64,000 nucleotides of DNA from Tubulanus polymorphus (taxonomy: Eukaryota; Animalia; Nemertea), in the NCBI RefSeq assembly GCF_964204645.1, contig NC_134029.1, forward strand, positions 12,364,850 to 12,428,849, written 5' to 3'. The position numbers and the translations under genes were made by a program. Positions 20,682 through 62,578 of this stretch are shown one piece after another. Below the pieces are notes generated by a model that was given only the letters and a program-made list of their open reading frames with translations, did no database searches and was not told the origin of the DNA. How positions within the stretch are numbered: the stretch's first letter is position 1; every line of letters begins with the position of its first letter.

Positions 20682-20725
<44 letters not shown>

Positions 20726-22613: not shown

Positions 22614-22804
22614 GTATTGTAGTACTGCCTCTTGGAATGCTTTATAAGTTTATTATAATGCAATTTGGCAGTATGGAAAATTTCGGGCTAAAGTATTTTT
22701 ACAAGAGGAGGTAGATAATTTTCAACAAAATGGTACATTCAGTCGTTCCTAGTTCCATAAAAGCAAGAAAGGGCACTTTGAGTCCCTATCAATATCAAAA
22801 GTAG

Positions 22805-22970: not shown

Positions 22971-22994
22971 CGAAAACTGCCTAGATAATGATAA

Positions 22995-23961
22995 ACTAGG
23001 GGTCCAGGGACACCATGCCCACTAGGGAAGTGGTTCCAAATGCTCAACAATCTACAATTTCAATATTCCCCCTGGTGACCATATGCAAAAACCAATGACC
23101 TTGAAACTCAATACAATCATAAAACATGTCAGCAGCTACGATTTTGTAATTGATTGTGGTAACAAAATATGCCTCGTTACCAATTTAATATGGAAATACT
23201 AAGTTAATCTACTATTCAACGCCCCCTGGTGACCATATTCAAAACCCAATGACCTTGAAACTCACCGCAATCATAGAACACGTCACGAACTATAACTTTG
23301 TAATTGATCATGGTAACAAAATATGCCTAGGTACCAATATAATAAGGAGATACTAAGTTATTCTACTATTCAACGCCCCCTGGTGACCATATAGAATAAC
23401 TAATGGCCTTTAAACTTGCGACAATCATAGATGATGTCATGAACTACAACTTTGCAATTGATTGTCGTTACAAAATATGCATTGATACGAATATAATATA
23501 GAAATACTAAGATATTGTATTATTCAACGCCCCCTGGTGGCCATATACAAAAACCAATGACCTTGAAACTCACCACAATCATGGAACACGTTATGAGCTA
23601 CAAGTTACTAATTGATTGTGGTAACAAAATACGCTTAGGTATCAATATAATGTGGAAAAACATTTTCCCACCTACGAATGAGTACTGATGACACCAAAAT
23701 GGCCGCCAATTGCGTCATAATTGGCTGATCAAAAATACCTGTCTCAGGTATAAAACATCCCTTTTCAAAGAATACCCATCACAAATTGCAATGAGAAATG
23801 GCAAACCAGTAGGGAGCTACAGCACTCAGAATTCGGGCCAATATTGACATTTTTGGGCACTAAAAAGGTCATAGGACGGTCATCTTGAGTCCGATCGACC
23901 CAATTTTTGCTATGCTGATGGGCCCTGGGGGGTATTCACATACATCCGAAAGATCAAGGTT
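22995..23961 (+). repeat. HINE/Helentron-like element with internal ~155-bp tandem units
   Basis: Starts ACTAGGGGTCCAGGGACACCATGC, as at 63246 and near 18138. About 4 tandem units containing TTCAACGCCCCCTGGTGACCATAT. Confidence 0.7.
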
Positions 23962-25827
23962 ATGGTTACCATTGTTGCAATTCAATTGTTAGCAAGACGT
24001 AGTAATAAGCGGCCCAATACATGGCCGAAGACTTTAGGCAAGTTTGAGAACATTTGGAATGTCACAAAAGACCCAACGCCCAAAATACCGGTACCTGACG
24101 GATGAAGAACGCAGATTTGAGTTGCTGTTACCATAGAAACCAATAAACAGTTAATCCCGATATTGACCAAGTACATACGAGTTATAAGTAAGTTTAAAGA
24201 AATATCAAAATAATCAACAAAAAACATTAACAACATCACTATTTGAGCTAATAACCTTTAAAATGAATATTTCATATGAAATTGCTATTTTCAAGTGAAT
24301 ATTACACGATTGTTGCTGCTGTAACTAGGTAACAAATGAATGTATGCATAAAAGTAACGTTGCGCTATATGCACTGCAATCCCCCAACTCAGAAAAGGTT
24401 TAGATTGTAAAATTACTCCAAACCTAAGATGAGATATTCGAATTATTTAGCAAAAGTAGTTTAAAGTGTATTTCCTTGACGAATGAAAATGAAGATGTTT
24501 AAATTTCAAAATGTCTGACTTTAACGCCCCCTGTAGGCCAAAAAACGAAAAAATTGTAAAAGGCATCCACCACACATGATAGCCCACATACTCTGCTATC
24601 AAATGAGCCCGGATGCCAAGCTGTAACAAAAAATGCCGTGATCGTCGAATTTTAGGATAGTTTTTTAAGGTTGGCTGGCTGACTATATGTTCTTAATTCA
24701 ATCTAATGAGAACACTTAAACTTGATACGACATGGTATTTTTGGTGGAATTTCAGAGGGGATCAGTGGTCAAGTCAATTGACACGATCTCTGTGAAGTGC
24801 TCTTAACATGCAGTAACAGTCGCTTTTTGACCCTACTTTCTTTGAATACCTGGACCATGCGGTCTGCATGTGGAAAACTAATGTTTTGTTTACCGGTGTA
24901 GTCTCCACATCAAGGCGGTGGTATAGCTTCACTTTAACAGTTTCCATTACCTCGTAATTCACAGTCTGAATAGCAGAGAACGTACTAGCATGCATTCTGT
25001 ATGACCTTTTGTCAATAACTTCAATCATTATGGAGGATGACTGCATTACCCGTGGACGGTGAATATGCTCACGCAAGCTTTGATGACCTTGGCTAAGACT
25101 GGGTATTTGCAGGAACAAAACACCGCTGCCCACCATGTGTCCAGACATGTATTTCCCTCAACTTCGGGAAGACTGCAGTCAAGTTGCAGTTTGGTTACCT
25201 CATTTAAAGGCTGACTTCGAGTATAAAATGCCCATCATGTGTCAGACATGGCATTAACTCTAAACCCATGGAGCAGTCAAGAGCTCCAGCAGTTGAAACT
25301 GGTATTTCCCTAATATCTCTGTCAGTTAACCGATTTGGACCCTCCTTTTTGTCAGAAATATGCATAAACATGTAATATAGTCATATCTATAAAATAAAAT
25401 TTAGTTTAAGCGCTCCTTCATGCATAAATAACCAATTTACTTAGTGCATTCTTCAAATTTTCAAATCTTTGAATGACAAGACAGGAGGAGTTATCCACTG
25501 CAACAACAGTGAGCACAATAACCTATAGTCATAAACCTATATAAACGAAACTGTTGCAGCTCTCTAGTGCGTAATTTTGGGGGGTTACAAAACTTTTTTC
25601 CGGAAAGTTGAATCAAATTGCGGGCCACCCTGCTAAAATTTAATGCCGCCCTGCTAAAAACGCAGCGCCCTGCCTTATGTTTTTACTGCCCTGTTTAATT
25701 TTTTTTCTGTTTCGTTTTCAGTTTGATTTTCTGTCTCAGACATTCTGAGGGGCGTTAAATTTTAAAATTTTCTTGGGGAGGACCCCCACATCCCCCGCAA
25801 TGGCTTCGCACCTTCAGTGCTCTGAAT

Positions 25828-27573
25828 TTTTTCCCACCTACGAATGAGTACTAATGACACCATGATGGCCACCAACTGCGCCATAATTGGTTGATCAAAA
25901 ATACCTGTCTCAGTTATAACATCCCTTTCCAAAGAATACCCATCACAAATTGCAATGAGAAATGGCAAACCAGTAGGAAGCTAGAGACTCAGAATTCGGG
26001 TCAAAATTGACATTTTTGGGCACTAAAAAGGTCATAGGATGGCCACCTTGAGTCCGATCGACCCAATTTTTGTTATGCTCATGGACCCTGGGGGGAATCA
26101 AATATAAACGAAAGATCAAGGTAATTGATCAAAGCGTCTTCAAAATTTCCCTCAATAAGTTCAAAACGTGTAAAAAAAGCTGATTTTGGCAAACAACAAC
26201 GGCTGCCAGTCGGCCAGCTTGATTCTGACAGGGCCAGTTTTTGGGCTGAAGATGTGTCTAGGGTAGATACATGTGTAAACCAAATATCAAGACATTGCAT
26301 TGAAGCGTCTTCAAAACTTCCCAAAATAACTGGATTCCGTCTACGGACGGACGATGGACAAAAAGTGAACGAAATAGCCTGCTGGGACTAAAGTCCCGAG
26401 TGGGCTAAAAATGGATGAGGTCAATTTTAATTTTTCATTAATCATTATTTTGTCTAACTGGTGAAACCAACGGAATAAAGTCTAGGCTTTTTAAATAATG
26501 CCTAGGTACCAATACGATATGGAAATACTAAGTTATTCTACTATTCAACGCCCCCTAGTGACCATATGCTAAGCCTGTGACATTGACTCTCACCATCATC
26601 ATAGAACATGTCATGAGCTACAACTTTGCTATTGATCATGGTAACAAAATATGCCTAGGTACCAAAATAATAAGGAAATACTACGTTATTCTATTATTCA
26701 ACACCCCCTAGTGACCATATAGAATAATTCATGTCCTTGAAACTTACCACAATCAGAGACCATGTCATGAGCTGCAACTTTCTAATTGATTGTGGTATCA
26801 AAATATGCATATATATGAATATACATAGAAATACTAAGTTATTGCATTGTTCAACGCCCCCTGGTGGCCATATACAAAAACCAATGTGTTCGAAACTCAT
26901 CACAATCAAAGAACATGCCATGAGCTACAACTTTGCAATTGATTGTGGCAAAAAAATATGCTTAAGTATCAATATAATATGGGAAAACCTTTTTCCACCT
27001 ACAAATGAGTACTGATGACACCAAGATGGCTGCCAATTGCGTCATAATTGCCTGATCAAAAATACCTTTCTCGGGTATAAAAGATCCCTTTTCAAAGAAT
27101 CCCCATCACAAATAGCAATGAGAAATGGCAAACCAGTAGGAAACTACAGGACTTAGAATTCGGGCCAAAATTTACATTTTTTAGCACTAAAAACGGTCAT
27201 AGGTCCGCCATCTTGAGTCCGATCGACCCAATTTTTCTGTAGGTGATGGGCCCTAGGGCGATTCAAATATATACGAAAGATCAAGGTAATTGATATAAGC
27301 ATCTTCAAAATTTCCCTCAAAAAGTTCAAAAATTTGTAAAAACAACAATGGCTGCCAGTCGGCCATCTTGAATCTGACAGGGCCAGTTTTTGGGCTGAAG
27401 ATGTGTCTAGGGTAGATACATGTATGAACCAAATATGAAGACATTACATTGAAGCGTCTTCAAAACTTCCCAAAATAACTGGATTCCGTCTACGGACGGA
27501 CAGACGGACGTATGACGGACGAAAAGTGAACGCAATAGCCCGCTGGGACTAAAATCCCAAGTGGGCTAAAAAA
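25828..27573 (+). repeat. Two adjacent partial copies of the same HINE-like family
   Basis: Homologous to 23060-23960. Each ends in (GACG)n plus a stem-loop and A-run (near 26410 and 27573). Confidence 0.7.
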
Positions 27574-34300: not shown

Positions 34301-37300
34301 AGGGATATAGTAGTTCAGTGAGAGTTCAAACTTATGGGTAATTTTGAGTGATCACAACGCTGACCAATAGAGAAACCTGTATCACAACAAAAGTGCGACT
34401 TATCTTATTGAAAAATACCGGAGAGTCAATGGGAGAACCCTGAATTCGAAACAATTCCACACTGGAATCGTCTACTTTGAAAACACAATTTGGAATTTGT
34501 GGACATGCATTATTTCTGCACCAAAAGCATGAAGTATATTATCCTTGCTTGTAAAAATTTGAAATTTTGAGGAAGATTTTTGGCCTCGTTAACCTGTGAA
34601 CATACAGTCCTTCATACATTTTCTAAGACCGACCCTTGAAATAATGCTGAGAGTTTAGAGGAAAATTATGGTAGAATGTAAACTTAGGCCGCTTCGTATC
34701 CGTGGAAGGTTGCTAATTATTGATTTTATGCACAATAATCATAAGTACCATAGGATCCATAGAATATCGTTTATCAATCATACGTTCACAAACTATCGCG
34801 ATATAAAGATAAATAGTACTTAATATACTTTTTACTTCTCATACGGTATATTTCTTTAGTAGTATAAATAAAGAGTGGATCAGCAGGCCACCTGAGACCA
34901 TTCCACGATCTAGGTCAGTTGCCAAATGTTAGTAAGTTTACTTACCAGTGGATAGTTAAAACAACTTTGTATATGGACAATAGTCACACTCAAATGCGGA
35001 GAATTGATAATACGATAATACGATACGATCACTGTGTACAAATTCAAAAAGATGATCTCTAGTGAGAGATCGAACGTTAAGTCGTTATTTTCTAATGGTG
35101 AAACTTGGTTTGAAATTTGAAATGTGCACATAGTGGATCTTCTTCATATTAACAGTGTATTTGGTCATGTATCATATTGTATAATGGTTAACTTAAACTA
35201 ACTGGTCCCAGAGTTGTATCCTTAATTCCTGTAATAGAGGATGCAATCTTTTTGCGACTAACAGTACAAATAGCTAGAAAAAGCAACGATAGTGCATTGG
35301 CAAACTAAAAGCAAGCGTACATTGGTTGTTTAAGTTTTTCTTTGGGAAAATTAATGTTTAATCATTATTGAAATATCCGAGGCGAGCTTTTCCAGGAATT
35401 TATGAAGTTGAGCTTACAAATATTTTACCACAATTTTTTATGATTAGTAAAAAGATTAAGTAATAGACATACATGCAAACAGTAATATCTGAAGTCCACT
35501 CCATTTCAAACTCATTCATCTTTACACAAACTCCAACTTGTTGAACAGTTCAAAATCGCGTGGCTTGAATTATTACGATAACTAAAATCAGGGACCACGA
35601 TACTTGCTCATCTACACTGGCTACCAATTTAACAAAGGATTGAATTTGAGTGTTTGATGTTGTAACAAAAGGCCTACCATACTGAATGATAGATTCAGTT
35701 TCTACTTTTTGATTGAACATTTATATCACATATTGGGTCATTTTTACTGGTATATATGGAAGAACCTATCCATATATCATGTTTAATTTTATATAATCTG
35801 ACTTTTGAGATGTCATTCAACCAATGCATTCATATGCGGCCGTCACGTTCAATCGCCACCACGGACTGGCTCCTTATTAGGCCCATCTCCTTGGCGATAC
35901 CTTGGCGGACGATCCCACACGTTTCTTGCACCAGCCCTAGAATCAGTGAAATTGGCGCTTTTCAGTTGTATTCATCATTCAAATCCACAATTCTCCTATC
36001 CTAAAAATGTGGAGACCCATCCTCGTATGAGAATGAATATAATATAGGCTCTGTTGCGTTCATATCATTTGATATGAGGCTCCGTGTCATCTTTAATTGA
36101 AATCTTGTGATTTCAATTAAAGATGACACGATGCCCTATATTATTACGTTATGTTTTTTAACGGGTGGGTGAGAATATATTCTTATGATTTTGTTGCTCT
36201 GAATGTTGCTATTTAAGAGTTCAATCATTTCAGTCTACCAAACAAAGGATTTTTCTGTATGTTTCGTGTCCTGTTTTTCCATAACCCTAGGACTGCATTT
36301 TAGGTATTTTTCGCGGATGACCGAAAGCTGCTGTCCCTTTCTAGTAATTTGACATATCTCCTTGTTTGACTAAGTATGAACTCAACTTTGAGGGACACTC
36401 CCTTAAAAGGCACCGAAATAAAACATGTGTTGAGTGGAGATGATATTGTGTCAGAATTTCTTCAAAAGCGGAGGAACTTGAATATTTTGAAAATAATGAT
36501 CTTACATTTATGTTTAAATCCGTTATAACTGGAGCAATTTTCATAAAAACATATCTATGGAATCAGCGAAATGTAATTAAGAAGAATACTATGTTTAAGA
36601 TGTTATCAAATACATTTGAAAAAAGTTTTCTGAATTCGTCAACTGTGAAACTAGTGTCAACCAGATGTGTTCCCATTAAACAACCGACCGCGAGCCGAGT
36701 CGATGTGAGATGAAAATCTCAAGCGCTACCACCGGTTTTTAGGTGCCTCTGAATAACGGCCGTTAAAAAACTGAACAATTGCCACTTGGAAAGGGCCTAG
36801 TGAGAGAAAATGCTAGATGTGTATATCGTGTGATACAGGCTCCATATTTCATGTGCGTTTGGAATTTAACCTTGTTTATAACGAAACACACATGTTTTTT
36901 TTCTACTTAGATTTAAAAAGAGCGCATGATAGTGCAATAAAGAACTGACAACGAAAAAGGGGTAACAGGTGACTGATATCACACCGAATTTCAATTCCTC
37001 TATGAACACTTTTCATATAGTGAATTCAATACATGAGTAAAAAAACTTGAAATATTAACGAAACAGTTTTTTGACGGACAAATCGTTACCATCGAATTTT
37101 CAAAACTTTTTTAATGCCTTGGTGACCACTGGTCTAGTACGCGGTTTTCTGAAACAAAAGTGACCAAGTCTAAAGAACAACTATTGTAACAAATCATTTC
37201 AAATATTAGGAGCCTAATGCGTTTAATGCTTTAATTAATTGGTATCGCGCTGATTGGTTGAAAGATGGGTAGTAGGGAATATGTTTGTTCAGGCCAGAGG

Positions 37301-37529
37301 TCGAGAGGTCGAGCTCACTCAACCTCTCTCCCTCTGACCTGAACAAACATATTCCTTATTACTCTATCCAATCACAAGTCTCCTAATTTACAAGTCTCAA
37401 CACGCTGGGGATTCCCCATTACTGTTGAGTAGTATAAATAAGCGGGTATTTCTGCTATACTCATAGGTGGCGGGGACGCGTTGAGCGGTAAGTGTTATTT
37501 TCAATTTTAATAAAAAATTTGATATTTAA

Positions 37530-37883
37530 ATGGAGAGTAAACAAGTACACAGTGAGAACAACAAATCATTTCTAGATAGAATAAAAGATACTACAAATGT
37601 AAAATCTGTAGATTATAAATTTAAGAATTTAAATGAACTAACAATTCATAAGAAATATTTAATTACAAATATTAAAGCAGTTACTAATAGATATAGTGAT
37701 AAATTAGTAATTCACTTAGAATATGAAGGATTAAGAGGAAATAAATATAAATTCAGAACATATTTACCAGATAGATTTCATAGATTATCAAGTGAAGATC
37801 TAGAAGAATTATGTTCTGGTGATTTCTATTTCATTTATAAAGGTAAGAATGAAAAAGGGCACAATGAAATAGATTTCGAATAA
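37530..37883 (+). CDS. Maverick small conserved protein (paralogue of 44124-44486), function unknown
   Basis: Intact 117-aa ORF with a TAAATG start. Highly similar to the inner-copy gene. Confidence 0.75.
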   Translation: MESKQVHSENNKSFLDRIKDTTNVKSVDYKFKNLNELTIHKKYLITNIKAVTNRYSDKLVIHLEYEGLRGNKYKFRTYLPDRFHRLSSEDLEELCSGDFYFIYKGKNEKGHNEIDFE

Positions 37884-37897
37884 AATATGTAAAATAA

Positions 37898-38656
37898 ATG
37901 GTAAAATTAAGAGAATATAGAATATTTGTTGATTCAAGAAGACTTACAAATTATAAATCTCATAATTTATTGATACAACTAGATAGAGAATTTAAGAATT
38001 GTGTAGATTTAAAATTAGTAAATGTAAGTTTATGTAATTCTTTTTATAATGTATCGAATAAAACTCTTGAACATAGAGCCTTTTTAATTTCTAATAAAAG
38101 TAAAAATAAATGGTATCATCTATCCCTAAAACCAGGGTTATATAATTTAGATACATTGTCACAAGAAATTAATAGAAAAGCCTGGCACAAATTAGGTAGT
38201 GATTCTGGGTTTGGCATTATATTTTTAAAAAGTGAGAGTTTTGATAAAATAAAGATAAGGTTAGCTCATGGTGAAAAACATCAATTTTTAGTTAAAAAAC
38301 CTATGGCTAAACTGTTAGGAATTACACCAGATAAACTTGATTCAAATATTGATGCTACACCAAACTTAATACCGTACACACATTTTTATATTTATTGCAA
38401 TTTAATTGATACTACAAAAACATTCGAAGCAACTAAAGATACAATTTGTAATTCTAGTATATTGAATATTTTACCATTGAAGAACGTTAAAGAATTTGGA
38501 ATGCAAATAAATTATAATTTAACAGAATGTGATTTTAAGCCTTGTATTCCACATTTCAATAATTTTAAATTAGAAATTAGAAATCACAATGGATACTTAA
38601 CTGATTTGAATAAATTTCCTGTAATTTATGAATTAGTTATAAGATGTAAAGAATAA
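37898..38656 (+). CDS. Minor capsid protein (penton, single jelly-roll), intact
   Basis: Motif order IFVDS..., PGLY, LLG, FYIYCNLI, ILNILP, LEIRNHNG..DLN..PV..EL fits Polinton/PLV pentons. Confidence 0.75.
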   Translation: MVKLREYRIFVDSRRLTNYKSHNLLIQLDREFKNCVDLKLVNVSLCNSFYNVSNKTLEHRAFLISNKSKNKWYHLSLKPGLYNLDTLSQEINRKAWHKLGSDSGFGIIFLKSESFDKIKIRLAHGEKHQFLVKKPMAKLLGITPDKLDSNIDATPNLIPYTHFYIYCNLIDTTKTFEATKDTICNSSILNILPLKNVKEFGMQINYNLTECDFKPCIPHFNNFKLEIRNHNGYLTDLNKFPVIYELVIRCKE

Positions 38657-38672
38657 TTTTTTCACTATATAA

Positions 38673-40113
38673 ATGAATATAACTGTTGGACCGAGTATAT
38701 GTTTTGGGTTTGATTTTAAAAATGGTAAAGAAATGAGGATTAAATTAAATTATGTAATTACTGATATAAAAAGTAAGTCATTTAATAATGCATCAATGAT
38801 TAATAAAGAAAATTATGATATAGAAAAAGTAATTGATTTAATTAAATCATCTTTAGAATATTATGAATTAAATGAAGATGGAATTATCGATGATATGAAA
38901 AACATATTATCTAAAATATATGATAATCATAAAAGTAGTAATAAAATAAATGTTGAAATAATTATAACAAAAATAAAAAAAATATTTTGATGATAGTATT
39001 TCCGTTGATAAATAAATGGCGGATCAGAAGTGGATAACCACTGGTTTATATAATGGAGCATTACTATCAGTTGGAACTGTTGGATATACAATGGTATTAA
39101 AAAAGTATTTAGAGTGAGAAGTATTAACGTTGATAGATTTGATATTAATGATATTTTAAAATTAACATTAGCAGTTACTTTATCTAATTTAACAATTGAT
39201 TATTTAGAAAAACAAAAATATATTCCTCCTATATAAATGCGTAATTTTTCTGCAATTATAACTATTATAGGATCAGCAATTGTTAACGCTTTAGAATTTA
39301 CAGGTGGTGGTTATTTATTTAAGCATATTGATAAAAATAGTTCAATAGCAGAACAAAGAAGACATAACTTAGCGTTAGAAAAATACAATAAAGCTGCAGA
39401 ATAATACAGAGAAAAGAGACAAAACTATATGGATTATATCAATAAAGAATTACATAATCAGAAAGTTACACATAGAGATTTTCAATCAGTTGATGAAGCT
39501 TTGAGTTTATATAATGCAGTAACAAATAAAGAAAAATTACATCTATACAAACCTAAATTATCAGATTATTATACACCAAGTAAAGAACAACAAAAATATG
39601 AAATAATTTGGATTTTAGGTGGAACAGTTATTGTATTATTTGTAGCATATAAATTTACTAAATAGTAATTTTTTTGCTACATAAATGGGTGATAAAGTTG
39701 ATAATAATGATATTATTCCTCATGATATTAATGAAATTAAATCAAAATTATATTTTGAAAAACAAATATTAGAAAATGATTTAAAAGTTAAAAAAAAAAA
39801 ATATTTAAAACGTAAAATTATATATTATTTTATTATAAGTGGTTCAGTAACAATTAGTTTTGTAATAACATTTCTAGCAATATTCAGTCCATTAACACCT
39901 TTAGCTATATCAATTGGTGTGCTAGGATTATCATCAAGTGTTTTAACCGGAATAAGTTCAAAATTAAATATAAAAGGTAATAAAGAAAAAATAAAATCTA
40001 ATATAAAAGAAATTAATAAATTAAAAAATACATACGATTATATTATAAGTTTAAATGGTAATATAACAATTCAAGAGCAGGATAAATTATTAAAAGAATT
40101 AATAAATTATTAA
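38673..40113 (+). pseudogene. Four small outer-copy genes (38673-38990, 39016-39236, 39237-39665, 39685-40113), some frameshifted or stopped
   Basis: Paralogues, in the same order, of 45266, 45622, 45868 and 46332. Confidence 0.75.
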
Positions 40114-40161
40114 TTTTTTTATTATATAAATGGCAATTAGTTTTCCAAAAGCTTTTCAATA

Positions 40162-40370
40162 AGTAATAGGGGTAATGGGCTTTCAGGCCAAAGGTCGAAG
40201 GGTCGAGCTCGTAAAAAAATGAAAATAACAATAATTTCCAGTTGAATTAGTCGCGCACACTCCTAATTCAACTGGAAATTATTGTTATTTTCATTTTTTA
40301 CTCACTCGCCCCTTCAACCTTTAGCCTGAAAGCCCATTACCCCTATTACTCTTAAAATATTCATATACAT
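40162..40370 (+). repeat. Left TIR (209 bp) containing a 189-bp hairpin
   Basis: Reverse complement of 61103-61310, with a single 1-nt indel seen. Confidence 0.95.
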
Positions 40371-43300
40371 TACTTATAAACACATACCTTTGTAATATAT
40401 CTTTGTAGAAAATGTTTACATAAATTCAGTAAATGAAAGTACATTATTAAATCATAAACAATTATGTGAAAATCATGATTATTGTAAATTAGTTTTACCA
40501 AATGAAAAGGATAAAATATTAGAATTCAAAAAATATGATTACAAAAATAAAGTACTATTTGTAATATATGGAGATTTTGAATCATTAAATAAAGAACTAA
40601 CTGATCAAGATATATATTATATAAGAAGAAATATATTATAAAAGAAAGAAATTAAACTCTAATGAAAATGATTTTTCAGTTGAACCACCAAAAACAAATA
40701 CAATTAAAATGATTAATCAATCAGCTGCTGCTTTCGGGTTATATATTAAATCTGATTATCCAGAACTAATTGAAAGTGAATATTATCATTATAGAAATGA
40801 AAATGTTATCAATCATTTTTGTGACTTATTAATTGAATATGAAATAAGATTTAATGAAAAGTTAAATAAAAATATAAAAATTATAATGACAGAAGAAGAT
40901 AACGAAGCATTTGAGTTTGCAGATAAATGTTATTATTGTGAAAAGATATTTAATTATAAAGATAAAAATGTAAGAGACCATGATCATTTGAATGGAAAGT
41001 TTAGAGGCGCTGCACATGAGAATTGTAACTTACAAGCTAAGAAAATTAACTTTGTACCAGTTATATTTCATAATCTATCAGGATATGATGCTCATTTATT
41101 TATCAAACAGCTATGTTATAAAATAGAAGAAATCAATAATGAAATAGAAAGATTAAATTCAAATAGATCAAAAGATAAAATACCAACTTATAAATTTAAA
41201 ATGTTAGCTAGAACATCTGAGAATTGTATATCATTCCAATTTGGGTGTTTAAGATTTATAGATTTTTATATAGTTCATTAGATAACTTATCAAAATCATT
41301 AGTTGATGATGAATTAAAAATATTAAAACAACACTACCCAAATAATGATGATTTCCAATTAATGAGATATAAAGGCGCAATTCCATATTCTTTCTATAAA
41401 TCACATAATGATTTTAACATAAATGAATTATTGAACAATTCTATGATGAATTAAAAAATGAATATGTTAAAGATGAAGTCTATAATAGAACATTGAATAT
41501 TTGGAATCATTTCAAAATAGAAAATCATGGACAATTAGTAGATTCATATCTAAAATCAGATGTATTATCATTAGCCGATATATTCGAAAGGTTTAGAGAT
41601 GTAAACCTAAAATATTTCAATATTGATCCTTGTCATTGTTATTCTAGTCCAGGTTTAACATGGGATTGTGGATTAAAATTTACAGATATAAAAATGGATT
41701 TGTTAACAAATATAGATCAATTATTATTATTTGAAAAATCTATAAGAAGAGGAGTTTCAGGTGTATTAGGGGATAGATATTTCAATGTAAATGATAACCC
41801 TGGATATAAATTATTATATATAGATGCAAATAATTTCGGTGTTGTCATATCGCGGAAAGACGGAATCGCGGAATTTTCCAAAAACGCGGAATTTCTTCAT
41901 TTCTACTTTAAATAGTAAACGGATTTTTTCCACGGGGATACCCACTGTCGGACAAGGCACCGGACCGATCGATGCAACGAGTTAGGTTCGAATCCCATTA
42001 TTTGCAGGCAATTTTATATGGAATTATTATATTACGATACCGTTGACTGAGCCAAATTCGGTTTTCGTATCTAGTCGACTAGTAGTCGAAACTAATAACC
42101 GAATGCGCTTGATTTTCGAACTATTTCCGGAAGTCACAAAGTAAACATTAAAAAAAACGAAACCATTTTATAATCTTTCATATCATTTAATTCAAAAAGA
42201 TAAACCACATTCGCTTATAACAACAATGTAGACACACAACACGCATGAACAATCCTAAGCCAGAATGAAATATACATAATGTCTATTTATTTTCGTCTGA
42301 CATCGATCCAGTTCCACAGTTGTGAGCTAACTCTCAGTTACTTAGAATCAATTCATTTCCAATGTTTTAAATCCAGAGACCAGAGTCAAATCTTAACTTG
42401 GAAATGAGTCCCGAAGAATGATCCATGGTGTCATCACAAATCCTACGTTTACGTACCATCGATTTGTATTCCTTCAGTTAATGCAGCGATACTCTGTATC
42501 ACTGAATTCGCAAAGCACGTATTGCCTAGGTTCTCCATTATTTGGAACAGTATCGTTAAGTTGTTGACTGGCGATATAGTTAACTATCAAATACTAATTC
42601 CCGGTGTTGAAAACCTGGGTCCGGTGCCCTGTCCGACAGTGGGTATCCCCGTGGGAAAACCCCGTTTACTATTTATAGTAAAAATGAAGAAATTCCGCGT
42701 TTTTGGAAAATTCCGCGATTCCGTCTTTCCGCGATATGACAACACCGAAATAATTTGTATGGTTGGGCAATGATGGAACCACAACCTTATGGAGTATTTG
42801 AAATAAGTGAAGTTTCACAACATGAAAATAATGATAAATTTGATTGGAAGAAAAGAATCCTAGATATTGCAGATGATTCAGATACTGGTTACTTCTTTGT
42901 TGTAGATTTAGAATATCCTGAACATATTAAATTTAAATCTAGAAATCTAGCATACTGTCCAGAACATAAAACTGTAACTCATGAAGAATTATCAAATTAT
43001 CAAAAAAGAATTAAACCCGAAAATCATATTCATACAGAAAAGTTAATGGTAACTCAAGAAGATAAATATAATTATGTAGTACATTATAGAATGTTAAAGT
43101 TTTATCTAAAACAAGGAATGACCCTAAAAAAAGTACATAGTTATATTTCATTCAGTCAATCTAAGTGGTTAGAAAAATATATAGATTTTAACACCAAACA
43201 AAGAACTGAAGCTAAAATTGATTTTGAGAAAGATTTCTTCAAACTAATGAACAATGCATTCTATGGTAAGACTTAGTGAAAATATTAGAAATAGAAATGA

Positions 43301-44094
43301 TATTGAGTTAGTTAGTAATGGTAAAATGATAAGGCATTTACAATCATATCCTAAGTTTTTAGGTAACAGAATATTTGATGAAAATTTAGCTGCAGTTAAA
43401 ATGAGAAGAACTTCTATGAAATTTAATAAATCAATTTATGTTGGAGCATCAGTTTTAGAAATATCAAAATTACTAATGTATGAATTCTATTATAATGTAT
43501 TACAACCTCATTTTGGAGAAAAACATATAGAAATCTTATATTTTGATACAGATTCTTACATATTAAAGATAAAAACTAATAACATAACTGATGATTTAAA
43601 AACATTAAAACATCATTTTGATTTCAGTAATTATCCTAAAAATCATGAATTGTTTAGCAATGATAATAAAAAGCGTCCCGGTAAATTCAAAGATGAATTA
43701 GGTGGTGAAGAAATGATAGAGTTCATTGGTATTAGATCCAAAATGTATTCATATAAAACTAAAGAATATGAAGCTAAAGGAATAACGTTAAATAAAGTTA
43801 AAAGGAATAACCAAAAGTGTAGTAGAAAAGAATATTCATTTCAAAGATTACATCAATTGTATATTCAAAGAAGAAGTTAGAAAACATAAAATGAGATGTT
43901 TAAGATCTGAAGATCATGAAATGTTTATTGAAGAGATAGAGAAGATAAGTCTAAACCCATTTGATGATAAAAGATATATTCTGGATGATGGAATTCATAC
44001 AGTTGCTTATGGTTGTAATTTAGATGAATACTTAAAATTTAAAAGAGAAGAAACAAAAGAGAACGAGATAATGAAAAGAATTCTAACGTGTTAA
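40371..44094 (+). pseudogene. polB: Protein-primed family B DNA polymerase with endonuclease-VII-like Zn insert; 5'-deleted, frameshifted and MITE-interrupted
   Basis: Motifs YGDFES, CYYC...RDHDHLNGKFRGAAHENCN, FHNLSGYD, YLKSDV, YIDANN|LYGWAM, KLMNNAFYGKT, YFDTDS, GKFKDE and RSKMYS. Confidence 0.95.
41837..42747. mobile_element. MULE-like MITE (911 bp, ~130-bp TIRs, 9-bp TSD) inside polB motif A
   Basis: CGGTGTTGTCATATCGCGG...CCGCGATATGACAACACCG flanked by AAATAATTT (41828-41836, 42748-42756). Confidence 0.92.
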
Positions 44095-44123
44095 TCAAAT
44101 TTTAATAAAAATATGTATTATAA

Positions 44124-44486
44124 ATGGAGAGTAAACAAGCAAACAGTGAGAACAACAAATTATTTCTAGATAGAATAAAAGATACTTCAAATGTCAAATC
44201 AGTAGATTATAAATTTAAGAAGTTAAAAGAATTAATAATCCATAAGAAATATCTAATTACAAATATTGATACAGTTACTAACAAATATGGAGATAAATTA
44301 GTTATACACTTAGAATATGAAGGATTAAAAGGAAATACATATAAATTCAGAACATATTTACCAGATAGATTTCATAGATTATCAAGTGAAGATCTAGAAG
44401 AATTATGTTCTGGAGATTTCTATTTCGTATACAAAGGTAAGAATGAAAAGGGGCATCATAAAATAGATTTCGAAAAAAATATGTAA
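44124..44486 (+). CDS. Maverick small conserved protein, function unknown
   Basis: Intact 120-aa ORF; paralogue at 37530. Confidence 0.75.
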   Translation: MESKQANSENNKLFLDRIKDTSNVKSVDYKFKKLKELIIHKKYLITNIDTVTNKYGDKLVIHLEYEGLKGNTYKFRTYLPDRFHRLSSEDLEELCSGDFYFVYKGKNEKGHHKIDFEKNM

Positions 44487-44491
44487 AATAA

Positions 44492-45249
44492 ATGGTAGAA
44501 TTAAAAGAATACAAAATATTTGTTGATTCTAGAAGACTTACAAATTATAAATCACATAATTTACTAGTACAATTAGATAGAGAATTTAAGAATTGTGTAG
44601 ATTCAAAATTAGTAAATATAAGTTTATGTAATTCTTTTTACAATATATCGAATAAAACTATTGAAGATAATACTTTTTTAATTCATATTAGAAATGTAAA
44701 TAAATGGTTTCATCTAATTTTAAAACCAGGATTATATAATTCAGATACATTAGCTCAAGAAATTATCAGAAGAGCACGGTTGAAAATTAGAAGTGAAGAT
44801 AAATTTATAATTAGATTTATAAAAAGTGATAGCACAAATAAAATTAAAATAAAGTTACATGATGAAAGTCAACATGCATTAATGGTAAAAAACCTATAGC
44901 TAAACTGTTAGGAATTGTACCAGATACTGTGACAGGAAACGTAGATGGTAATTCAAATTTAATGACTTTTACGCACTTTTATATTTATTGCAATTCAATT
45001 GATCCTACAAAAACATTTGAAGCAACTAAAGAAACAATTTGTAGTTCTAGTATACTAAATATTTTACCGCTAAAAAATGTTAAACAATTTGGAACGCAAA
45101 TAAATTATAATTTAACAGAATGTGATTTTAAACCTTGCATTCCTAAATTTAATAATTTTAAGTTAGAAGTAAGAAATCATAATGGATACTTAATTGATTT
45201 AAATAACTTTCCTGTGATATATGAATTAGTTATAAGATGTAGAGAGTAA
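44492..45249 (+). pseudogene. Penton (minor capsid), 1-nt frameshift near 44890
   Basis: ORFs 44492-44899 and 44929-45249 join to match the intact 37898-38656 protein. Confidence 0.8.
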
Positions 45250-45265
45250 TTTTTTCATTATATAA

Positions 45266-45625
45266 ATGAATATAACTGTTGGACCGAGTATATGTTTTGG
45301 GTTTGATTTTAAACGTGAGAAAGAAATGAAATTTAACATTAATGATGTAATTACACATATTAGAAATATTGCATTTTCTAATGAAACAACATTTGAGTAT
45401 GAAACAACAATAGATAAAGAAACTTTAAATGTAGAAAAGATTACTAATTTAATTAGAGAATCTTTAAGATTTTATGAATTAGATGAAGATTTTATCATCG
45501 ATGATATTAAAAAAATAATAATTGAAATATATACAAATGAAACTAGTAATGAAATAAATGTTGAATTAATCATAAATAAGATAACTAAATATTTTGAAGA
45601 TAGTAATTTTTTGATAAATAAATGA
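45266..45625 (+). CDS. Hypothetical Maverick protein (119 aa)
   Basis: TAAATG start. The paralogue at 38673 shares MNITVGPSICFGFDFK. Confidence 0.65.
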   Translation: MNITVGPSICFGFDFKREKEMKFNINDVITHIRNIAFSNETTFEYETTIDKETLNVEKITNLIRESLRFYELDEDFIIDDIKKIIIEIYTNETSNEINVELIINKITKYFEDSNFLINK

Positions 45626-45843
45626 GTGATAATAAGTGCATAATAACTGGATTATATAATGGAGCATTACTATCAGTTGGAACTGTTGGTTATTCAAGGG
45701 TATTAAAAAAAGTATTCAAATTGGGAAGTGTTAATGTTGATAGATTTGATATAAATGATATCTTAAAATTAACATTAGCAGTTACTTTATCTAATTTAAC
45801 TATTGATTATTTGGAAAAACAAAACTATATTCCTCCCATATAA
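45622..45843 (+). CDS. Small hydrophobic/amphipathic protein (73 aa)
   Basis: Two hydrophobic helices; paralogue at 39016. Confidence 0.7.
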   Translation: MSDNKCIITGLYNGALLSVGTVGYSRVLKKVFKLGSVNVDRFDINDILKLTLAVTLSNLTIDYLEKQNYIPPI

Positions 45844-45867
45844 ATGCGCAATTATTTTACTAAATAA

Positions 45868-46311
45868 ATGGCTTCTGCAATTATAACTATTATAGGATCG
45901 GCAATTGTTAACGCTTTAGCATTTACTGGTGGCGGTTATTTATTTAAGCATATTGATAAAAATAGTTCATTAGGAGAACAAAGAAGACATAACTTAGCAT
46001 TAGAGAAATACAATAAAGCAGCAGAAGAATACAGCGAAAAACGACAAAACTATATGGATTATATCAGGGAAGTCCCTGATTATATTAACAAGGAATTATA
46101 TGATCAGAAGATTTCACATAGAGATTTTCAATCAGTTGATGATGCAATGAGTTTAGATAACGCAGTAACCAATAAAGAAAAATTACATCTTTACAAACCT
46201 AAATTATCAGATTATTATACACCAAGTAATGAACAGAAGAAACATGAAATAATTTGGATTTTAGGCGGAACTGTTATTGTTATATTTGTTTCTTATAAGT
46301 TTACTAATTAG
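45868..46311 (+). CDS. Membrane protein with N- and C-terminal hydrophobic helices (147 aa)
   Basis: MASAIITIIGSAIVNALAFTGGGYLF ... IIWILGGTVIVIFVSYKF; paralogue at 39237. Confidence 0.75.
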   Translation: MASAIITIIGSAIVNALAFTGGGYLFKHIDKNSSLGEQRRHNLALEKYNKAAEEYSEKRQNYMDYIREVPDYINKELYDQKISHRDFQSVDDAMSLDNAVTNKEKLHLYKPKLSDYYTPSNEQKKHEIIWILGGTVIVIFVSYKFTN

Positions 46312-46331
46312 TAATTTTTTTTGATAAATAA

Positions 46332-46766
46332 ATGGATGATAAAGTTGATAATATTGATATCATTGCTCATGATATAAATAAAACTGAATTAAAAATATAT
46401 TTAGAAAAACAAATATTAGAATTTGAAAGTGATTTAAAGATAAAAAAGAAAAAATATTTAAAAAGTAAAATTATATATTATTTTATTATCAGCGGTTCAG
46501 TTACAATTAGTTCTGTAATAACATTTCTAGCAATATTCAGTCCATTAACACCTTTAGCTATATCAATTGGTGTATTAGGATTAAGTTCAAGTGTTTTAAC
46601 TGGTATAAGTTCAAAATTAAATATAAAAAGTAATAAAGAAAAAATTAAAAGTAATATAAAAGAAATTAATAAATTAAAAAATACACTAGATTATATAATA
46701 AGTTTAAATGGTCATATAACAGTTGAAGAAAAAAATAAATTATTAAAAGAATTCGTTAATTATTAA
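46332..46766 (+). CDS. Coiled-coil protein with two transmembrane helices (144 aa)
   Basis: Hydrophobic hairpin IIYYFIISGSVTISSVITFLAIFSPLTPLAISIGVLGLSSSVLTGI; paralogue at 39685. Confidence 0.75.
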   Translation: MDDKVDNIDIIAHDINKTELKIYLEKQILEFESDLKIKKKKYLKSKIIYYFIISGSVTISSVITFLAIFSPLTPLAISIGVLGLSSSVLTGISSKLNIKSNKEKIKSNIKEINKLKNTLDYIISLNGHITVEEKNKLLKEFVNY

Positions 46767-46782
46767 TTTTTTTATTATATAA

Positions 46783-48110
46783 ATGGTATATAGTTTTCCA
46801 AAAGCTTTCCAATATAATAAATCAATGAAATATAATATTCCAGCAATAGATTTTAATAAAGATATTTCATATAGAAATGAAGTTTTAAATTCATTAATTG
46901 ATTTATATATTTATGTTACTGAAAGTAATAATTTTCATGTAAAGATGGAAAATATATTTCATGTGTATACAATTAATTTTAAAAATCTAAATGAGGCAAA
47001 ACAATGGTTATTAAAATCTAATATGAAGTATTGGCAGAACCAATTAAATTTTGCTGTTTATTGCGCAACAACAGGATGTGGAATAAGTTGGAATGATCAT
47101 TTAAATAAACCAAGTTTACCATTGATGTTATCACTTTTTAGATTTCATACTTATTTTCAAATAAAATTAATATTAGATGAATTAGAATGTCCTTTACCAG
47201 GTTCAAAATATTTTTAAGAATTGAATAATAATATTAATTTTTCTAAGTTTTATAAAATATGTAATGAATTTAATATTAATTCAAATAAAGATTTTAGAGC
47301 AAAAATTGGAACAATGGGTGGATTAGGAATATTATATACTAAAGAATTTGGAAAAATAATGACAAATTCAGATATAAGAATACTAAATTGGAATGAATTA
47401 CCAAAATATTATAATAATATACAACAACAAAATAATAATGGTTGGGTTTATTTCATTTTAGAAAATAGTGAAGGTTTTACTAAAGCTGGTATACAAAGAA
47501 TAAATCAATCAATTAGAACTTATTTGATATGTATTTTAGGTGCGCAAGTTGAAACAAGATCGCCAATAGTTGGAAATGATAACGCTTCATTCGATGCGCA
47601 GAAACAATTCAAAGTATTATTTGAAGATTCCATTCATAATGATAAAAATAGATCGATTCCAGAAAACATTGTAAGATATCAAAATTATTTAGATAAATCC
47701 CATATTAGACTTAATTATTGTATAGGCCCTAATCTATTAATTATTTCTAATGATTTAGTATTAAAGATGGGAAATATAATTGGTTATAATAATCTAATTA
47801 AAAACTGCAACAATAAATAATTCATTTGGATTGAATGATATAAATAAAAAGATTATTACTGCTCCAAAATTAATGGAAGGTGAAAAAAAATAAAAAACAT
47901 ATTCAATCAACAGAAACTAAAACTAAGAATATTAAATTAAATAATGATTCTAAAATAAGAGATTACAATACTACAGAAAATATAGAAACTGATATTATTC
48001 AACATGAAATAATTAAACTAAATGATGATAATAAATCCCATGAAAATACTAAATTAGCTATAACCTGTATAGGAATTGTAATCGGAGGAATATTATATTT
48101 TAAATTTTAA
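46783..48110 (+). pseudogene. Conserved Maverick protein (~440 aa) with C-terminal TM anchor; one stop and a frameshift
   Basis: WQNQLNFAVYCATTGCGISW, ILGAQ and FDAQKQF motifs. Fragments 46783, 47221 and 47880 are collinear with 61317-62578. Confidence 0.8.
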
Positions 48111-52529: not shown

Positions 52530-53039
52530 TCAGTAGGTATAATTTGATTCCAATGATTGTTGCATAGATTTTTTATCTTTGTTATAAAATAAAACTAGAA
52601 ATCTTATATTCTCCCTAAAGTCTTTAACAATTGAATTATATTTTTGATTTAAAACCCATGTTGTTATCCCAAAATGTCTCCCAGAGAAAGCTAAATAACA
52701 TAACTCACTTTCTCTCACTTTTGAATCATGTAAATTAGCGCAAACATCTACAATGAATAATGTATTTGATCCTTTATAGATATCAATTGCTATTTTTAAA
52801 CAATTATCTAAATTTTCTTTTACTGTTTTAGGATCTAATATAATAAACTTTTTTATCTTAATTATATCTCTATTATATGTTTTATTCATTTCATAAGTAG
52901 GACAGAATAATATTATATTATCAAAATGATTCTTATAAATAGTTTCTAACAAATCTAATATGAAATGTGTTTTACCACAGTTTGTTACCCCAGTAACTAA
53001 CATATTATGCGGTTCAAATATAAATAAATCTTTATTCAT
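52530..53039 (-). CDS. A32/FtsK-like genome-packaging ATPase (probably degenerate)
   Basis: Walker A GVTNCGKT, Walker B LFIVDV (DD expected), and GRHFGI...LNQ. Confidence 0.88.
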   Translation of the reverse strand: MNKDLFIFEPHNMLVTGVTNCGKTHFILDLLETIYKNHFDNIILFCPTYEMNKTYNRDIIKIKKFIILDPKTVKENLDNCLKIAIDIYKGSNTLFIVDVCANLHDSKVRESELCYLAFSGRHFGITTWVLNQKYNSIVKDFRENIRFLVLFYNKDKKSMQQSLESNYTY

Positions 53040-56170: not shown

Positions 56171-56994
56171 TCTATTTCATCTAGATTTGGTACAAGTGAT
56201 AATTCTTGTTCATAGAAATAACCTAATATTTCTTCGTCTTTTAGATCTTCTAGTTTATAAACAAAAGGTTTAGTTAATATTATCTTTTTAATCTTGAATA
56301 TTTCTTCTGTAAAATTAGGGGTATAACCTTTATAAAATGTTTTTCTATATTTAGATATTCTGACATGTTGCCTAATTTTAAATTTAGGTTCTCCGAAATC
56401 ATGTGTAACAAACGCACCATATAAATTATTCCAAACTATTTCCGAATTATCTTCTTTTCTAGATTGTATAGGTTTCATATTTGCTTTTTTATCTGAGTGT
56501 GTTGAAAAATAATCTACATCGTTATCAGATAATAGTTTTTTGAAATGTTTGTTATAAAATTCTTTACCTTCATCAAATTGTATCTTATCTGGAATAGCTT
56601 CTTTAAATATTGATTAAAAAGCATTTTTTACTTCTATACAAGTTTTATTTTTGATTGGAATTGACCATGCGTATCTACTGAATATGTCTATAACATTCAG
56701 TATCCAGAAATATCCTTTGTTGTATTCCTCTAAGTTCTTCATGTCAATTAAATCTGCTTGCCATTGTTGATCGATATATGAAACCATAACTTTTCTTGTT
56801 AAATAAGTTTTATCCATTTTCTTGTGGATTTGATATGTTGGTTGATTTTGTAACCATGATTTTAATTCACTATATTTTATATTACCATTTTCCTTATCAG
56901 ATTTAATTTTATTCCATAATTCTGAAACGTTAGAATATGATACTTCACTTTCTGGGTAATAATATAACTCTCTTAAATATTGTTCTTTTTTCAT
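56171..56994 (-). pseudogene. Maverick retroviral-like (rve) integrase, frameshifted and internally deleted
   Basis: WQADLIDM, VIDIFSRYAW, IQFDEGKEFYN and KGYTPNFTEEIF are present. The ERFNRT segment carrying the catalytic Glu appears deleted (reads SDKKA-NMKP). Confidence 0.9.
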
Positions 56995-58231: not shown

Positions 58232-58882
58232 TTAAGACTCAACGTATTGTTCATTATTTGGATCATTGTTCCATTGATCAATAAATTTCTTTGCCTTTGT
58301 TAACTGCTCTAAATATAAATGTAAATCTAGTTTATTAGATTTGATTTGATTTTCTTTCTTTTCTAGAGGTCTTAAATTTTTCCAACCCCAAATAAGGTTT
58401 TTATTGTATTCATCATTCTTGTTAAATTTAGATAACACATGATCAATATGGTAATAATCCCCATAATTATCTATGTTCATTTTATCGTCGAATTGAAATA
58501 TAATCCATGATTTGAGAAATTCATCTGAACAACCCAACAAATTAGATAATGTTTCTGAATGTGTTTCTTTGTTGAATAATTGTGTTAATCTAGATCTTAA
58601 GCATTGTTTCAATCTAAAATTAAGATCTATTTGATATCTTTCTCTCATATATTCTGCCATATAATAATTATAATGTTCTATATTATCTTCTCGGTATTGT
58701 TTGGTATATAGCTTAGTGCAAGTTTTACAGCAATATTGAAAACCATCTTTGCTAATCTTACGCTTACTAAATTCTGTTAAAGCTAATTTATCTAATTCAC
58801 ATTTAGAACACTTCTTGTAGTATATATTTATAACACCAGTGTTATTTGTAATATTAATACTTTGTGGTTGTTCTGGCTCCAT
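58232..58882 (-). CDS. Zn-ribbon plus HNH/endonuclease-VII-like protein of the type common in large DNA viruses
   Basis: KKCSKC...KDG...CKTC, LLGCS, NYG.YYHIDHV and NLRPL...EN..KSNK. Confidence 0.78.
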   Translation of the reverse strand: MEPEQPQSINITNNTGVINIYYKKCSKCELDKLALTEFSKRKISKDGFQYCCKTCTKLYTKQYREDNIEHYNYYMAEYMRERYQIDLNFRLKQCLRSRLTQLFNKETHSETLSNLLGCSDEFLKSWIIFQFDDKMNIDNYGDYYHIDHVLSKFNKNDEYNKNLIWGWKNLRPLEKKENQIKSNKLDLHLYLEQLTKAKKFIDQWNNDPNNEQYVES

Positions 58883-61102: not shown

Positions 61103-61310
61103 ATGTATATGAATATTTTAAGAGTAATAGGGGTAATGGGCTTTCAGGCTAAAGGTTGAAGGGGCGAGTGAGTAAAAAATGAAAATAACAATAATTTCCA
61201 GTTGAATTAGGAGTGTGCGCGACTAATTCAACTGGAAATTATTGTTATTTCATTTTTTTACGAGCTCGACCCTTCGACCTTTGGCCTGAAAGCCCATTAC
61301 CCCTATTACT
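61103..61310 (-). repeat. Right TIR (208 bp) containing the same hairpin
   Basis: Reverse complement of 40162-40370. Confidence 0.95.
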
Positions 61311-61316
61311 TCAATA

Positions 61317-62578
61317 TAAAAAATCAATTGAATATAATTTTCCTGCAATAGATTTTAATAAAGATATTTCATACAGAAATGAAGTTTTAGATTCATTAAT
61401 TAATTTAGAAATTCATGTTACTGAAATTAATAATTTTAATGCAAAGATGGAAAATATATTTCATGTATATTTAATTGATTTTAAAAAATTGAAAGATGAA
61501 AAACAATGGTTATTAAAATCTAATATGAAGTATTGGCAAAACCAATTAAATTTTGCTGTTTATTGTGCAACAACAGGATGTGGAATTAGTTGGAATGATC
61601 ATTTGAATAATTCTAAATATGAATTAATTCAAAGTTTATTTAGATTCCATACATACTTTCAAATAAGATTAATATTAAATGAATTAGAGACCCCTTTACC
61701 AGGATCTAGATATTTTAAAGAATTAGGTAATAATATTAATTTATCAAAGTTTTATGAAATTTGTAATGAATTTAATATAGATATAAATAATTTTGATTTT
61801 AGAGCAAAACTTGGAACAATAAGATCACTTCCTTGCCCTAAAAATATTGCGGAATATTGTGCACTTCCCATGCCCATTAATAGTTATTACAATATCTATA
61901 ATAATAAATTAGGTTATGGTAAAATAGAAACTAAGGATTTAGAAACATTAAATTTTAATTACCGAAATTTTATGATAATTTAAAACAAGAAAACAATAAT
62001 GGTTGGGTTTATTTTATTTTAGAAAATAGTGAAGGTTTTACTAAAGCTGGTATACAAAGAATAAATCAATCAATTAGAACTTATTTGATTTGCATATTAT
62101 GATCACAGGTTGAAACAAGATCCCCAATAATTGGAAATTCAAATACATCATTTGATACACAAAAACAAGTATTATTTGAAGATTCCATTTATAATGATGT
62201 AAATAGATCAATTCCAGAAAATATAGTAAGATATCAAAATTATTTAGATAAATCTCATGTAAGATTAAATTATTGTATAGGACCCAATTTATTAATTATT
62301 TCTGATGATTTAATATTAAAGATGGAAAATATAATTGGTTATAATAATCTAATTAAAACCGCAACAATGAATAATAAGTTTGGATTAAATGATATAAATA
62401 AAAAGATTATCACTGCTCCAAAATTAATGGAAGGTGAAAAAAATTAAAAAACATATTCAATCAACAGAAACTAAAACTAAGAATATTAGATTGGATAATG
62501 ATTCTAAAATAAAAGATTACAATACTACAGAAAATATAAAAACTGATATTATTCAACATGAAATAATTAAAACTAAAT
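61317..62578 (+). pseudogene. 3' part of the outer-copy gene whose first 10 codons lie at 40130-40161
   Basis: MAISFPKAFQ (40130) joined to YKKSIEYNFPAIDFNKDISYRNEV matches MVYSFPKAFQYNKSMKYNIPAIDFNKDISYRNEV (46783). Confidence 0.88.

Follow-up and report, generated by a model that had tools for sequence, protein, structure and literature searches.

The hairpin at positions 37268-37363 of the window (by which we mean the whole 64-kb stretch of DNA that was analysed) represents a conserved terminal structure of a clade of Mavericks (Polintons), and comparison of sequences indicates that it is likely to be the left tip of one such element, termed here the outer Maverick (Table 1). Hairpins of this design are likely to work as end signals for replication or excision, because related elements keep the same design, with arms that co-vary in sequence and a motif that is intact solely on the outer arm. 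Three points are new: the asymmetry of the arms, which fall into two zones; a related locus (L005) without a hairpin, which constitutes a natural control; and the link between the hairpins and the protein-primed DNA polymerase (pPolB).

Table 1. Features of the outer and inner Mavericks and of the adjoining DNA (positions in the window)
Feature	Position	Strand	Remarks
Left flank, separate multi-copy host repeat	36300..37270	.	other copies agree to 37270, then diverge
Predicted left TSD of outer element, ATGGGT (if start is 37271)	37265..37270	+	inferred; alternative AAGATG at 37262-37267
Outer hairpin, terminal arm	37268..37313	+	positions 1-46 of the register; element probably begins at 37271 (AGT)
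Double CG box of outer terminal arm	37294..37313	+	positions 27-46
Outer hairpin, loop CTCA, 4 nt	37314..37317	+	place where 93 bp of the inner hairpin are missing, at a CTC microhomology
Outer hairpin, internal arm	37318..37363	-	inverted copy of the end; minus strand reads AGTAAT; both boxes broken
Spacer and promoter region	37364..37529	+	AT-rich tract ending TAAATG
Outer Maverick, left part	37271..40161	+	84% identical to inner 44098-46819
ORF117, predicted OB-fold SSB, phi29/PRD1-P12 type	37530..37883	+	first gene inside the hairpin, likewise in L001 and L004
ORF252, minor-capsid-like	37898..38656	+	feature score 0.97 to a cluster of Sputnik V18/19 (26% of its members), with a recognition value under the threshold
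Inner left TSD, TCAATA	40156..40161	+	matches right TSD
Inner left TIR, 209 bp	40162..40370	+	bases 1-189 form the long hairpin
Inner pPolB, broken	40395..44091	+	first ~437 residues missing, frameshifts, 0.9-kb TIR element inserted
Inner A32-like packaging ATPase	52530..53039	-	Pox_A32, E 2.5e-10
Inner rve integrase, in pieces	56476..56994	-	Pfam rve, E 0.0018, below Pfam cut-off
Stand-alone endonuclease-VII/HNH-like gene	58232..58882	-	phrog_1035, E 6.6e-13
Inner right TIR, 208 bp	61103..61310	-	same hairpin, same orientation; one 1-nt indel
Inner right TSD, TCAATA	61311..61316	+	matches left TSD
Outer Maverick, continuation	61317..62578	+	homology ends without a TIR

The outer hairpin

A first-pass annotation of this DNA had described a hairpin with 46-bp arms and a CTCA loop at this place, and its sequence, coordinates and pairing were all confirmed. 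The 46 arm positions comprise 39 Watson-Crick pairs, three G-T pairs and four mismatches; the DNA fold reaches -35.8 kcal/mol compared with -11.4 +/- 2.6 kcal/mol in shuffled sequences (z about -9), and none of 200 shuffles folded as well. A scan of the whole window for hairpins with 40-bp arms and at least 32 pairs returned five clusters, which correspond to the outer hairpin, both terminal inverted repeats (TIRs) of the inner element, an (AT)n run and the region 58074-58166; ten shuffled windows served as controls and gave none (0/10). The motifs that the annotation had seen in both the outer hairpin and the inner TIR were recovered as well: exact matches to the box pattern occur in the window solely at 37289, 40183 and 61289 (minus strand), with none expected by chance, and matches with three mismatches are the two inner internal arms. 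The outer double box equals that of the related locus L005 at 20/20 positions and shows at most three differences from the inner TIR and from the related locus L004.

The outer copy is 93 bp shorter than the inner hairpin and the junction lies at a CTC microhomology, in line with the central segment of about 90 bp that had been annotated as missing. This short form is likely to be derived by loss of the central stem, because the inner element as well as loci L001 and L004 carry long middles, and it may represent a deletion confined to one outer copy. Contig depth over the bin containing the hairpin was 2417, 253, 54 and 1 in four contig sets (X1 to X4), values that do not represent a copy number and give a hint that the outer hairpin sequence is present in several copies. 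One X1 contig shows a joint at 37316, which was discarded as its short side comprises only 23 letters.

Relatives of the hairpin ends

Relatives were obtained solely through alignment of pPolB, which yielded 124 loci (80 from metagenomes, where 80 of 103 matches were kept, 29 viral and 15 from genomes), most of which stop short of an element end. A scan with single proteins detected no relatives, and the exact box patterns had no match in viral_contigs or metagenome_contigs. Fifteen pPolB contigs (L110-L124) had been assigned to MAGs of bacteria or archaea, which probably reflects contamination of these MAGs by eukaryotic viruses.

Three of the six closest loci (L001-L006) include enough upstream DNA for a comparison. 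L004, whose pPolB is 78% identical to P0003 (P0001, a near-twin of P0003, is 81% identical to the window), contains a 257-bp hairpin at 190-446 that starts with AGTAAT and is followed by an ORF117 homologue and then by pPolB. The L001 contig begins within the hairpin and displays the tip and the internal arm, again followed by ORF117 and pPolB. The outer element, L004 and L001 thus have a common layout of hairpin, spacer of 120-220 bp and ORF117 homologue; since L001 and L004 show the same order of hairpin and ORF117, we dropped the idea that the outer element had lost a pPolB gene between the two. In L005 (pPolB identity 63%) a terminal arm with boxes in register is present, there is no return arm, and a full-length pPolB ORF follows.

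When all 124 loci were scanned for hairpins bounded by AGTA and TACT, requiring 21 or more pairs among the 26 end positions and using five shuffles as control, such hairpins were found in three loci (L004, L008 and L042), each at most 190 bp from a contig end, and in none of the shuffles (0/5). The pPolB identity is 48% for L008 and 34% for L042, and the L042 hairpin shows AGTAGT; the stem of L008 continues 9 bp beyond AGT, and the position of its end is uncertain. pPolB is present together with the hairpin in the inner element, L001, L004, L008 and L042, and hairpin lengths across the elements studied here range from 93 to 257 nt. Long TIRs that lack such a hairpin were seen in two further loci, L081 and L104, whose extreme ends are not established. 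Box matches with three mismatches in L089 and L112 were taken as chance, there being no AGT at the right distance. Hairpins that are not tied to an element end were seen in L050, L090, L093, L094, L097 and L109. The one in L090 (4657-4840) is 184 bp long, lies between integrase and pPolB and has ACTACT and AGTAGT at its borders, opposite to what an element end shows; the one in L109 lies within coding DNA and looks like an artefact. L075 was excluded from the hairpin list as a dinucleotide repeat.

Two zones of the arms

The arms of three distinct full-length copies with unrelated middles were compared by positions anchored at the element end; MAFFT misaligned the hairpins. Between families, the terminal arms diverge at 8-13 of the 23 sites in positions 4-26 (35-57%), and within a single element the two arms disagree at 0-2 of them. 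The first-pass annotation had pointed to a stem that departs from the inner TIR and still pairs, and seven of the eight differences between the outer and inner terminal arms at these positions are indeed matched on the partner arm. Its broader statement that pairing is kept despite sequence change also holds, as the arms co-vary well beyond chance expectation in permutation tests (7/8, 10/13 and 10/12 differences compensated; P 2e-4, 2e-3 and 5e-4, by position alone).

Positions 27-46, which hold the two CG boxes, are invariant in the terminal arms of four families at 15 of 20 sites compared with 6 of 23 sites at positions 4-26 (Fisher P 0.002, for zones that were drawn post hoc and with L004 and L005 spotted via the box). 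The full box motif is absent from all internal arms examined (outer, inner, L004 and L001), where CG often reads TG in register, and at position 26/27 the arms abruptly cease to match, a change that recurs in three families. We found no flip-flop forms: all five boxed ends (outer, inner left, inner right, L004 and L001, representing four families) keep the intact box outside, which weakly suggests that the orientation of the hairpin is fixed in these four families. In 5/5 families, the strand with its 3' end at the terminus forms a fold at least as good as that of the other strand, with one tie, which is a weak hint. The central stem varies from a 4-nt loop to about 165 bp.

Probable left end of the outer element

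The hairpin had been proposed as the left end of an outer Maverick, and this assignment is supported by the layout common to L004 and L001, by the separate repeat that makes up the DNA to its left and by the six bases on either side (AAGATG or ATGGGT before the hairpin, CTATCC after it), which do not make a target site duplication (TSD) for the hairpin by itself. As to other copies that might extend leftward of the hairpin, the flank is a multi-copy repeat that continues differently past 37270. The evidence for this boundary comes from the four contig sets, which stem from one study and at most two samples and were compared over 36300-39600, most pieces being less than 99% alike. The flank repeat is covered in 4/4 sets; one X4 contig tracks the flank to 37270, beyond which its 130 further letters are unrelated, and an X3 contig (record 22) terminates at 37270. 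A continuation of the flank representing the empty site was not found within the 64-kb window. At 37.3 kb the GC content drops from about 36% to 22-30%.

If the element starts at 37271, its end is AGT and falls three bases short of the register seen in the family. The outer end reads AGTAGG from 37271 or GGTAGT from 37268, and the internal arm reads AGTAAT; for comparison, the ends (AGT)2 and (AG)3 are given in the accessible text of a vertebrate Maverick survey (PMC8097293). We consider it probable, with some reserve, that the outer element starts at 37271 rather than at 37268, which predicts the TSD ATGGGT; a start at 37268 is less likely because it requires that the invariant first base changed from A to G and, in addition, that three bases match the empty site by chance. 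The spacer that follows the hairpin contains words which we take to be CCAAT- and TATA-like.

Gene content and architecture

The inner element (40162-61310, 21 kb), bounded by TIRs and by a 6-bp TSD (TCAATA) on both sides, sits inside the outer element, and the two share 84-90% DNA identity over about 3.8 kb. The right end of the outer element falls beyond the window. Segments of the inner pPolB are 64-86% identical to P0001, homologues carry PF03175, and pPolB matches at 43-45% identity have spider and crinoid names among them; together with the repeat content, these names point to a host that is probably an invertebrate animal. The rve integrase has tblastx matches in many pPolB loci. Pieces of a candidate major capsid protein at 50108-50967 match L027, match no named family or structure and gave no hit in a search of PDB sequences; an adenain-type protease had no Pfam match among 30 ORFs. 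In the relatives L001, L002 and L004, the order TIR-SSB-pPolB-endonuclease-ORF202-ORF123-integrase forms one run, pieced together from three contigs, and comparison with it suggests that the inner element underwent an inversion or module swap. A 75-bp remnant of the pPolB end is located at 58859-58933 in the inner element, whose pPolB lies on the opposite arm relative to these loci.

ORF117 is predicted to be a single-stranded DNA-binding protein (SSB) of the phi29/PRD1-P12 type. It has 18 remote homologues, its modelled fold (pLDDT 73) is derived from a 22-row alignment, and it matches an SSB of a staphylococcal podophage with an E value of 3.5e-4; matches below significance include PrgE, Teb1, PRD1 P12 and bacterial SSBs, and the nearest Atlas family is Phi29 SSB (0.82, a lead only). 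A fold search of the PDB gave no match at E <= 0.001, with mostly OB-fold SSBs on the top ranks, and the ORF117 profile had no match in the PDB sequence search. The second gene product of interest is an endonuclease-VII-like nuclease, which is found above the cut-off as a domain within the inner pPolB (ORF 40709-41281). Besides the window, L001, L004, L005 and L042 show the corresponding motif in pPolB. A stand-alone gene is present in the window and, next to pPolB, in L001, L002 and L004 (3/124 loci). No resolvase was matched by the nuclease domain in the PDB sequence search.

Several further features were observed. A 0.9-kb element with 143-bp inverted repeats (94%) at 41824-42760 is inserted into the inner pPolB, and a remnant of an LTR retrotransposon with 213-bp LTRs (99.5% alike) and a DUF1759 gag-like ORF occupies 53170-56171 within the inner element. 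An AT-rich internal hairpin at 58075-58165, between the endonuclease gene and ORF202, starts with AGTA, ends with TACT and has 25/26 pairs. AT-rich tracts ending in TAAATG, which we take to resemble a poxvirus late promoter, stand at most inspected ORF starts of both elements (37530, 37898, 38673, 39685 and 40130; ORF starts of this type also at 44124-46783, 48126, 51073, 53039, 57973 and 58882); raw counts of TAAATG, not adjusted for composition, are 70 in 25 kb of element and 32 in 37 kb of host DNA. At 18814-24653, inverted repeats of 692 bp (99% complementary) surround reverse-transcriptase ORFs and a 154-bp satellite. A 154-bp tandem repeat family, probably associated with a Helitron, is found at 23068-23675, 26493-26881 and 63304-64000, and its core presumably resembles a CTCF site. 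An element with 286-bp inverted repeats (97%) is located at 11177-11900 in the host part.

Possible functions of the hairpin

To our knowledge, excision of Polintons/Mavericks and the start of their replication have been modelled and never demonstrated. By analogy with adenovirus, we tentatively favour, with a confidence just short of even, a protein-primed origin that is supplemented by an inverted back-up copy, which would rebuild the duplex end locally. The terminal arm would act as origin and integrase site, composed of the AGT start, a variable spacer and the two CG boxes at positions 27-46. pPolB would replicate the element by strand displacement with the help of the predicted SSB encoded next to it, and the displaced or excised strand would fold its 3' end onto the internal arm, forming a local panhandle that would substitute for a 20-kb panhandle between both ends. 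If the end were trimmed and synthesised anew on this fold, both arms would stay identical over their outer ~26 nt. The boxes, as candidate sites, may bind a replication or integration factor, and the broken internal boxes would keep the pseudo-end from being used. This model is supported by the co-variation of the arms, the boxes being terminal only, the apparently fixed orientation and the SSB-like first gene. Against it stand the absence of such a hairpin from most of the 124 loci (few of which include an end), the freedom of the central stem to vary, the number of only three distinct full-length boxed hairpins and the fact that ordinary TIRs already supply a panhandle; in addition, decay of the internal boxes could be due to relaxed constraint and CpG loss. 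Because L005 has boxes and a full-length pPolB ORF without a return arm, the hairpin is not obligatory, unless the L005 copy is defective. An adenovirus-style jump-back of 3 nt does not fit well because AGTAAT is an imperfect triplet repeat.

It is unlikely, in our estimation, that the pPolB Maverick clade uses polar hairpins for both excision and regeneration of its ends, in such a way that the ends would extrude or fold locally and the element would supply its own enzyme for the cut, an endonuclease-VII-like nuclease or the integrase, the internal arm serving as master template of the tip with its boxes disabled so that solely the true end is used. If true, this would provide a testable answer to the question of how Polintons exit from the chromosome.

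Alternatively, the boxes might be the functional signal and the hairpin a dispensable by-product of recurrent template switching or fold-back synthesis that is kept symmetric by copying. We regard this as doubtful, though deserving attention: the best evidence for it is L005 with its boxes and without hairpin, and it is also consistent with the middle stems of the inner element, L004, L001 and L008, which are unrelated palindromes, and with the loss of 93 bp on a microhomology in the outer copy. Accidental annealing is listed as an alternative in the accessible part of a preprint on palindromes of Halocafeteria elements (10.64898/2026.07.28.741278). However, the layout is kept over a span of pPolB identity from 78-81% to 34% (L004, L008 and L042), and the sharp change in arm matching at 26/27 recurs in three families. 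Furthermore, long palindromes are normally unstable. That a solo MITE-like hairpin landed beside Maverick genes by chance is very improbable and largely refuted; it does begin and end like a tiny element (AGT...ACT), but it has no TSD of its own on either side, the order of hairpin, spacer and ORF117 is repeated in L001 and L004, and a homologue of the hairpin forms both inner TIRs.

Two other proposals assign the hairpin an active role. Terminal palindromes could be excision handles that extrude as cruciforms, with an endonuclease-VII-like nuclease cutting at the base and protein priming by pPolB opening the hairpin-capped ends. The coincidence of the hairpin base with the TSD boundary and the presence of an endonuclease-VII-like domain in pPolB and in stand-alone copies would suit such a process, and T4 endonuclease VII is known to cleave cruciforms. 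Nevertheless, we consider it improbable, given that L005 has the domain and no hairpin, that mismatches between the arms hinder cruciform extrusion, that the nuclease domain matches no resolvase by sequence and that the window contains no footprint of a solo hairpin. Moreover, endonuclease insertions in pPolB are known and, in the accessible part of one study, are interpreted as homing elements, that is, as invasions by homing endonucleases or inteins (10.1101/2024.03.18.585575), and the domains also occur in nematode and oomycete Polintons, with no mention of hairpins in the main text of a report on nematode pPolB2 Polintons (10.1101/2023.08.22.554363). Still less probable is a self-priming telomere similar to those of parvoviruses and poxviruses, in which the folded 3' end primes synthesis and a nuclease resolves the product later. 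The geometry would yield a base-paired 3'-OH, the accessible part of the Halocafeteria preprint proposes this model for virophage and PLV palindromes (10.64898/2026.07.28.741278), and parvovirus ends of which a single form occurs are on record (PMC8242256); yet flip-flop was not seen in five ends from four families, no HUH/Rep match was obtained among 30 ORFs (the outer element being incomplete), and the clade keeps a full-length pPolB and the AGT terminus typical of protein priming.

Whichever of these explanations applies, the ends provide a short comparative and testable substrate, with a co-varying tip, a box on one arm, L005 as control without hairpin and a natural short form. Terminal palindromes have so far been reported mainly for protist elements without pPolB; the ends described here add elements that carry pPolB and whose host is probably an animal. 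The internal pseudo-end can mislead the annotation of TIRs and TSDs.

Comparison with known systems

The elements analysed here share with known Mavericks/Polintons the 6-bp TSD, the AGT...ACT ends, the rve integrase, the A32 ATPase, a size of about 21 kb and a pPolB with an HNH-type insertion. In contrast to known Maverick/Polinton TIRs, each TIR here starts with a long palindrome, has a double box at positions 27-46 and begins with AGTAAT instead of (AGT)2. No account of asymmetric boxed hairpins in animal Mavericks came up among the papers covered by our literature search; palindromic TIRs may be described in the founding Polinton papers or in Repbase. The words 'hairpin' and 'palindrom' are absent from the main texts of the vertebrate survey (PMC8097293), of a study of adintoviruses (PMC8502044) and of the nematode Polinton report (10.1101/2023.08.22.554363), and a figure legend in a further preprint marks palindromic repeats (10.64898/2026.10.13.758929). 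Related literature, available in part, also includes PMC11296320, PMC12721341 and 10.1101/2022.07.28.501842.

An imperfect terminal palindrome is also found in the hairpins of parvoviruses (the left end of MVM, bocavirus). In the left end of MVM, asymmetry marks one arm as the active one. Unlike in parvoviruses, there is no HUH nickase (among 30 ORFs) and no flip-flop here, and the element is an integrating one of double-stranded DNA. The adenovirus ITR resembles the ends described here in belonging to a system with a polymerase of the protein-primed family and an SSB partner, in the terminal A that is repeated at position 4, in a conserved subterminal block and in the displaced strand that needs a duplex end. 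In adenovirus, however, two distant ends are paired and a local inverted copy is absent, and the boxes here are putative binding sites; the adenoviral panhandle, the factors NFI and Oct-1 and the jumping-back mechanism are treated in the accessible parts of PMC12116113 and PMC5175343.

A parallel in position is provided by virophages of Halocafeteria seosinensis and one PLV subtype, for which the accessible part of the preprint describes terminal palindromes beside TSDs, mostly in elements without pPolB, together with a hairpin-priming model (10.64898/2026.07.28.741278). As in our inner element, these palindromes are located inside the TIR and adjoin the TSD, and a role as hairpins has been proposed for them. 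They measure 52 nt (in subtype 5) and belong mostly to non-pPolB elements, whereas the hairpins described here are 93-257 nt long, have asymmetric arms and belong to elements with pPolB.
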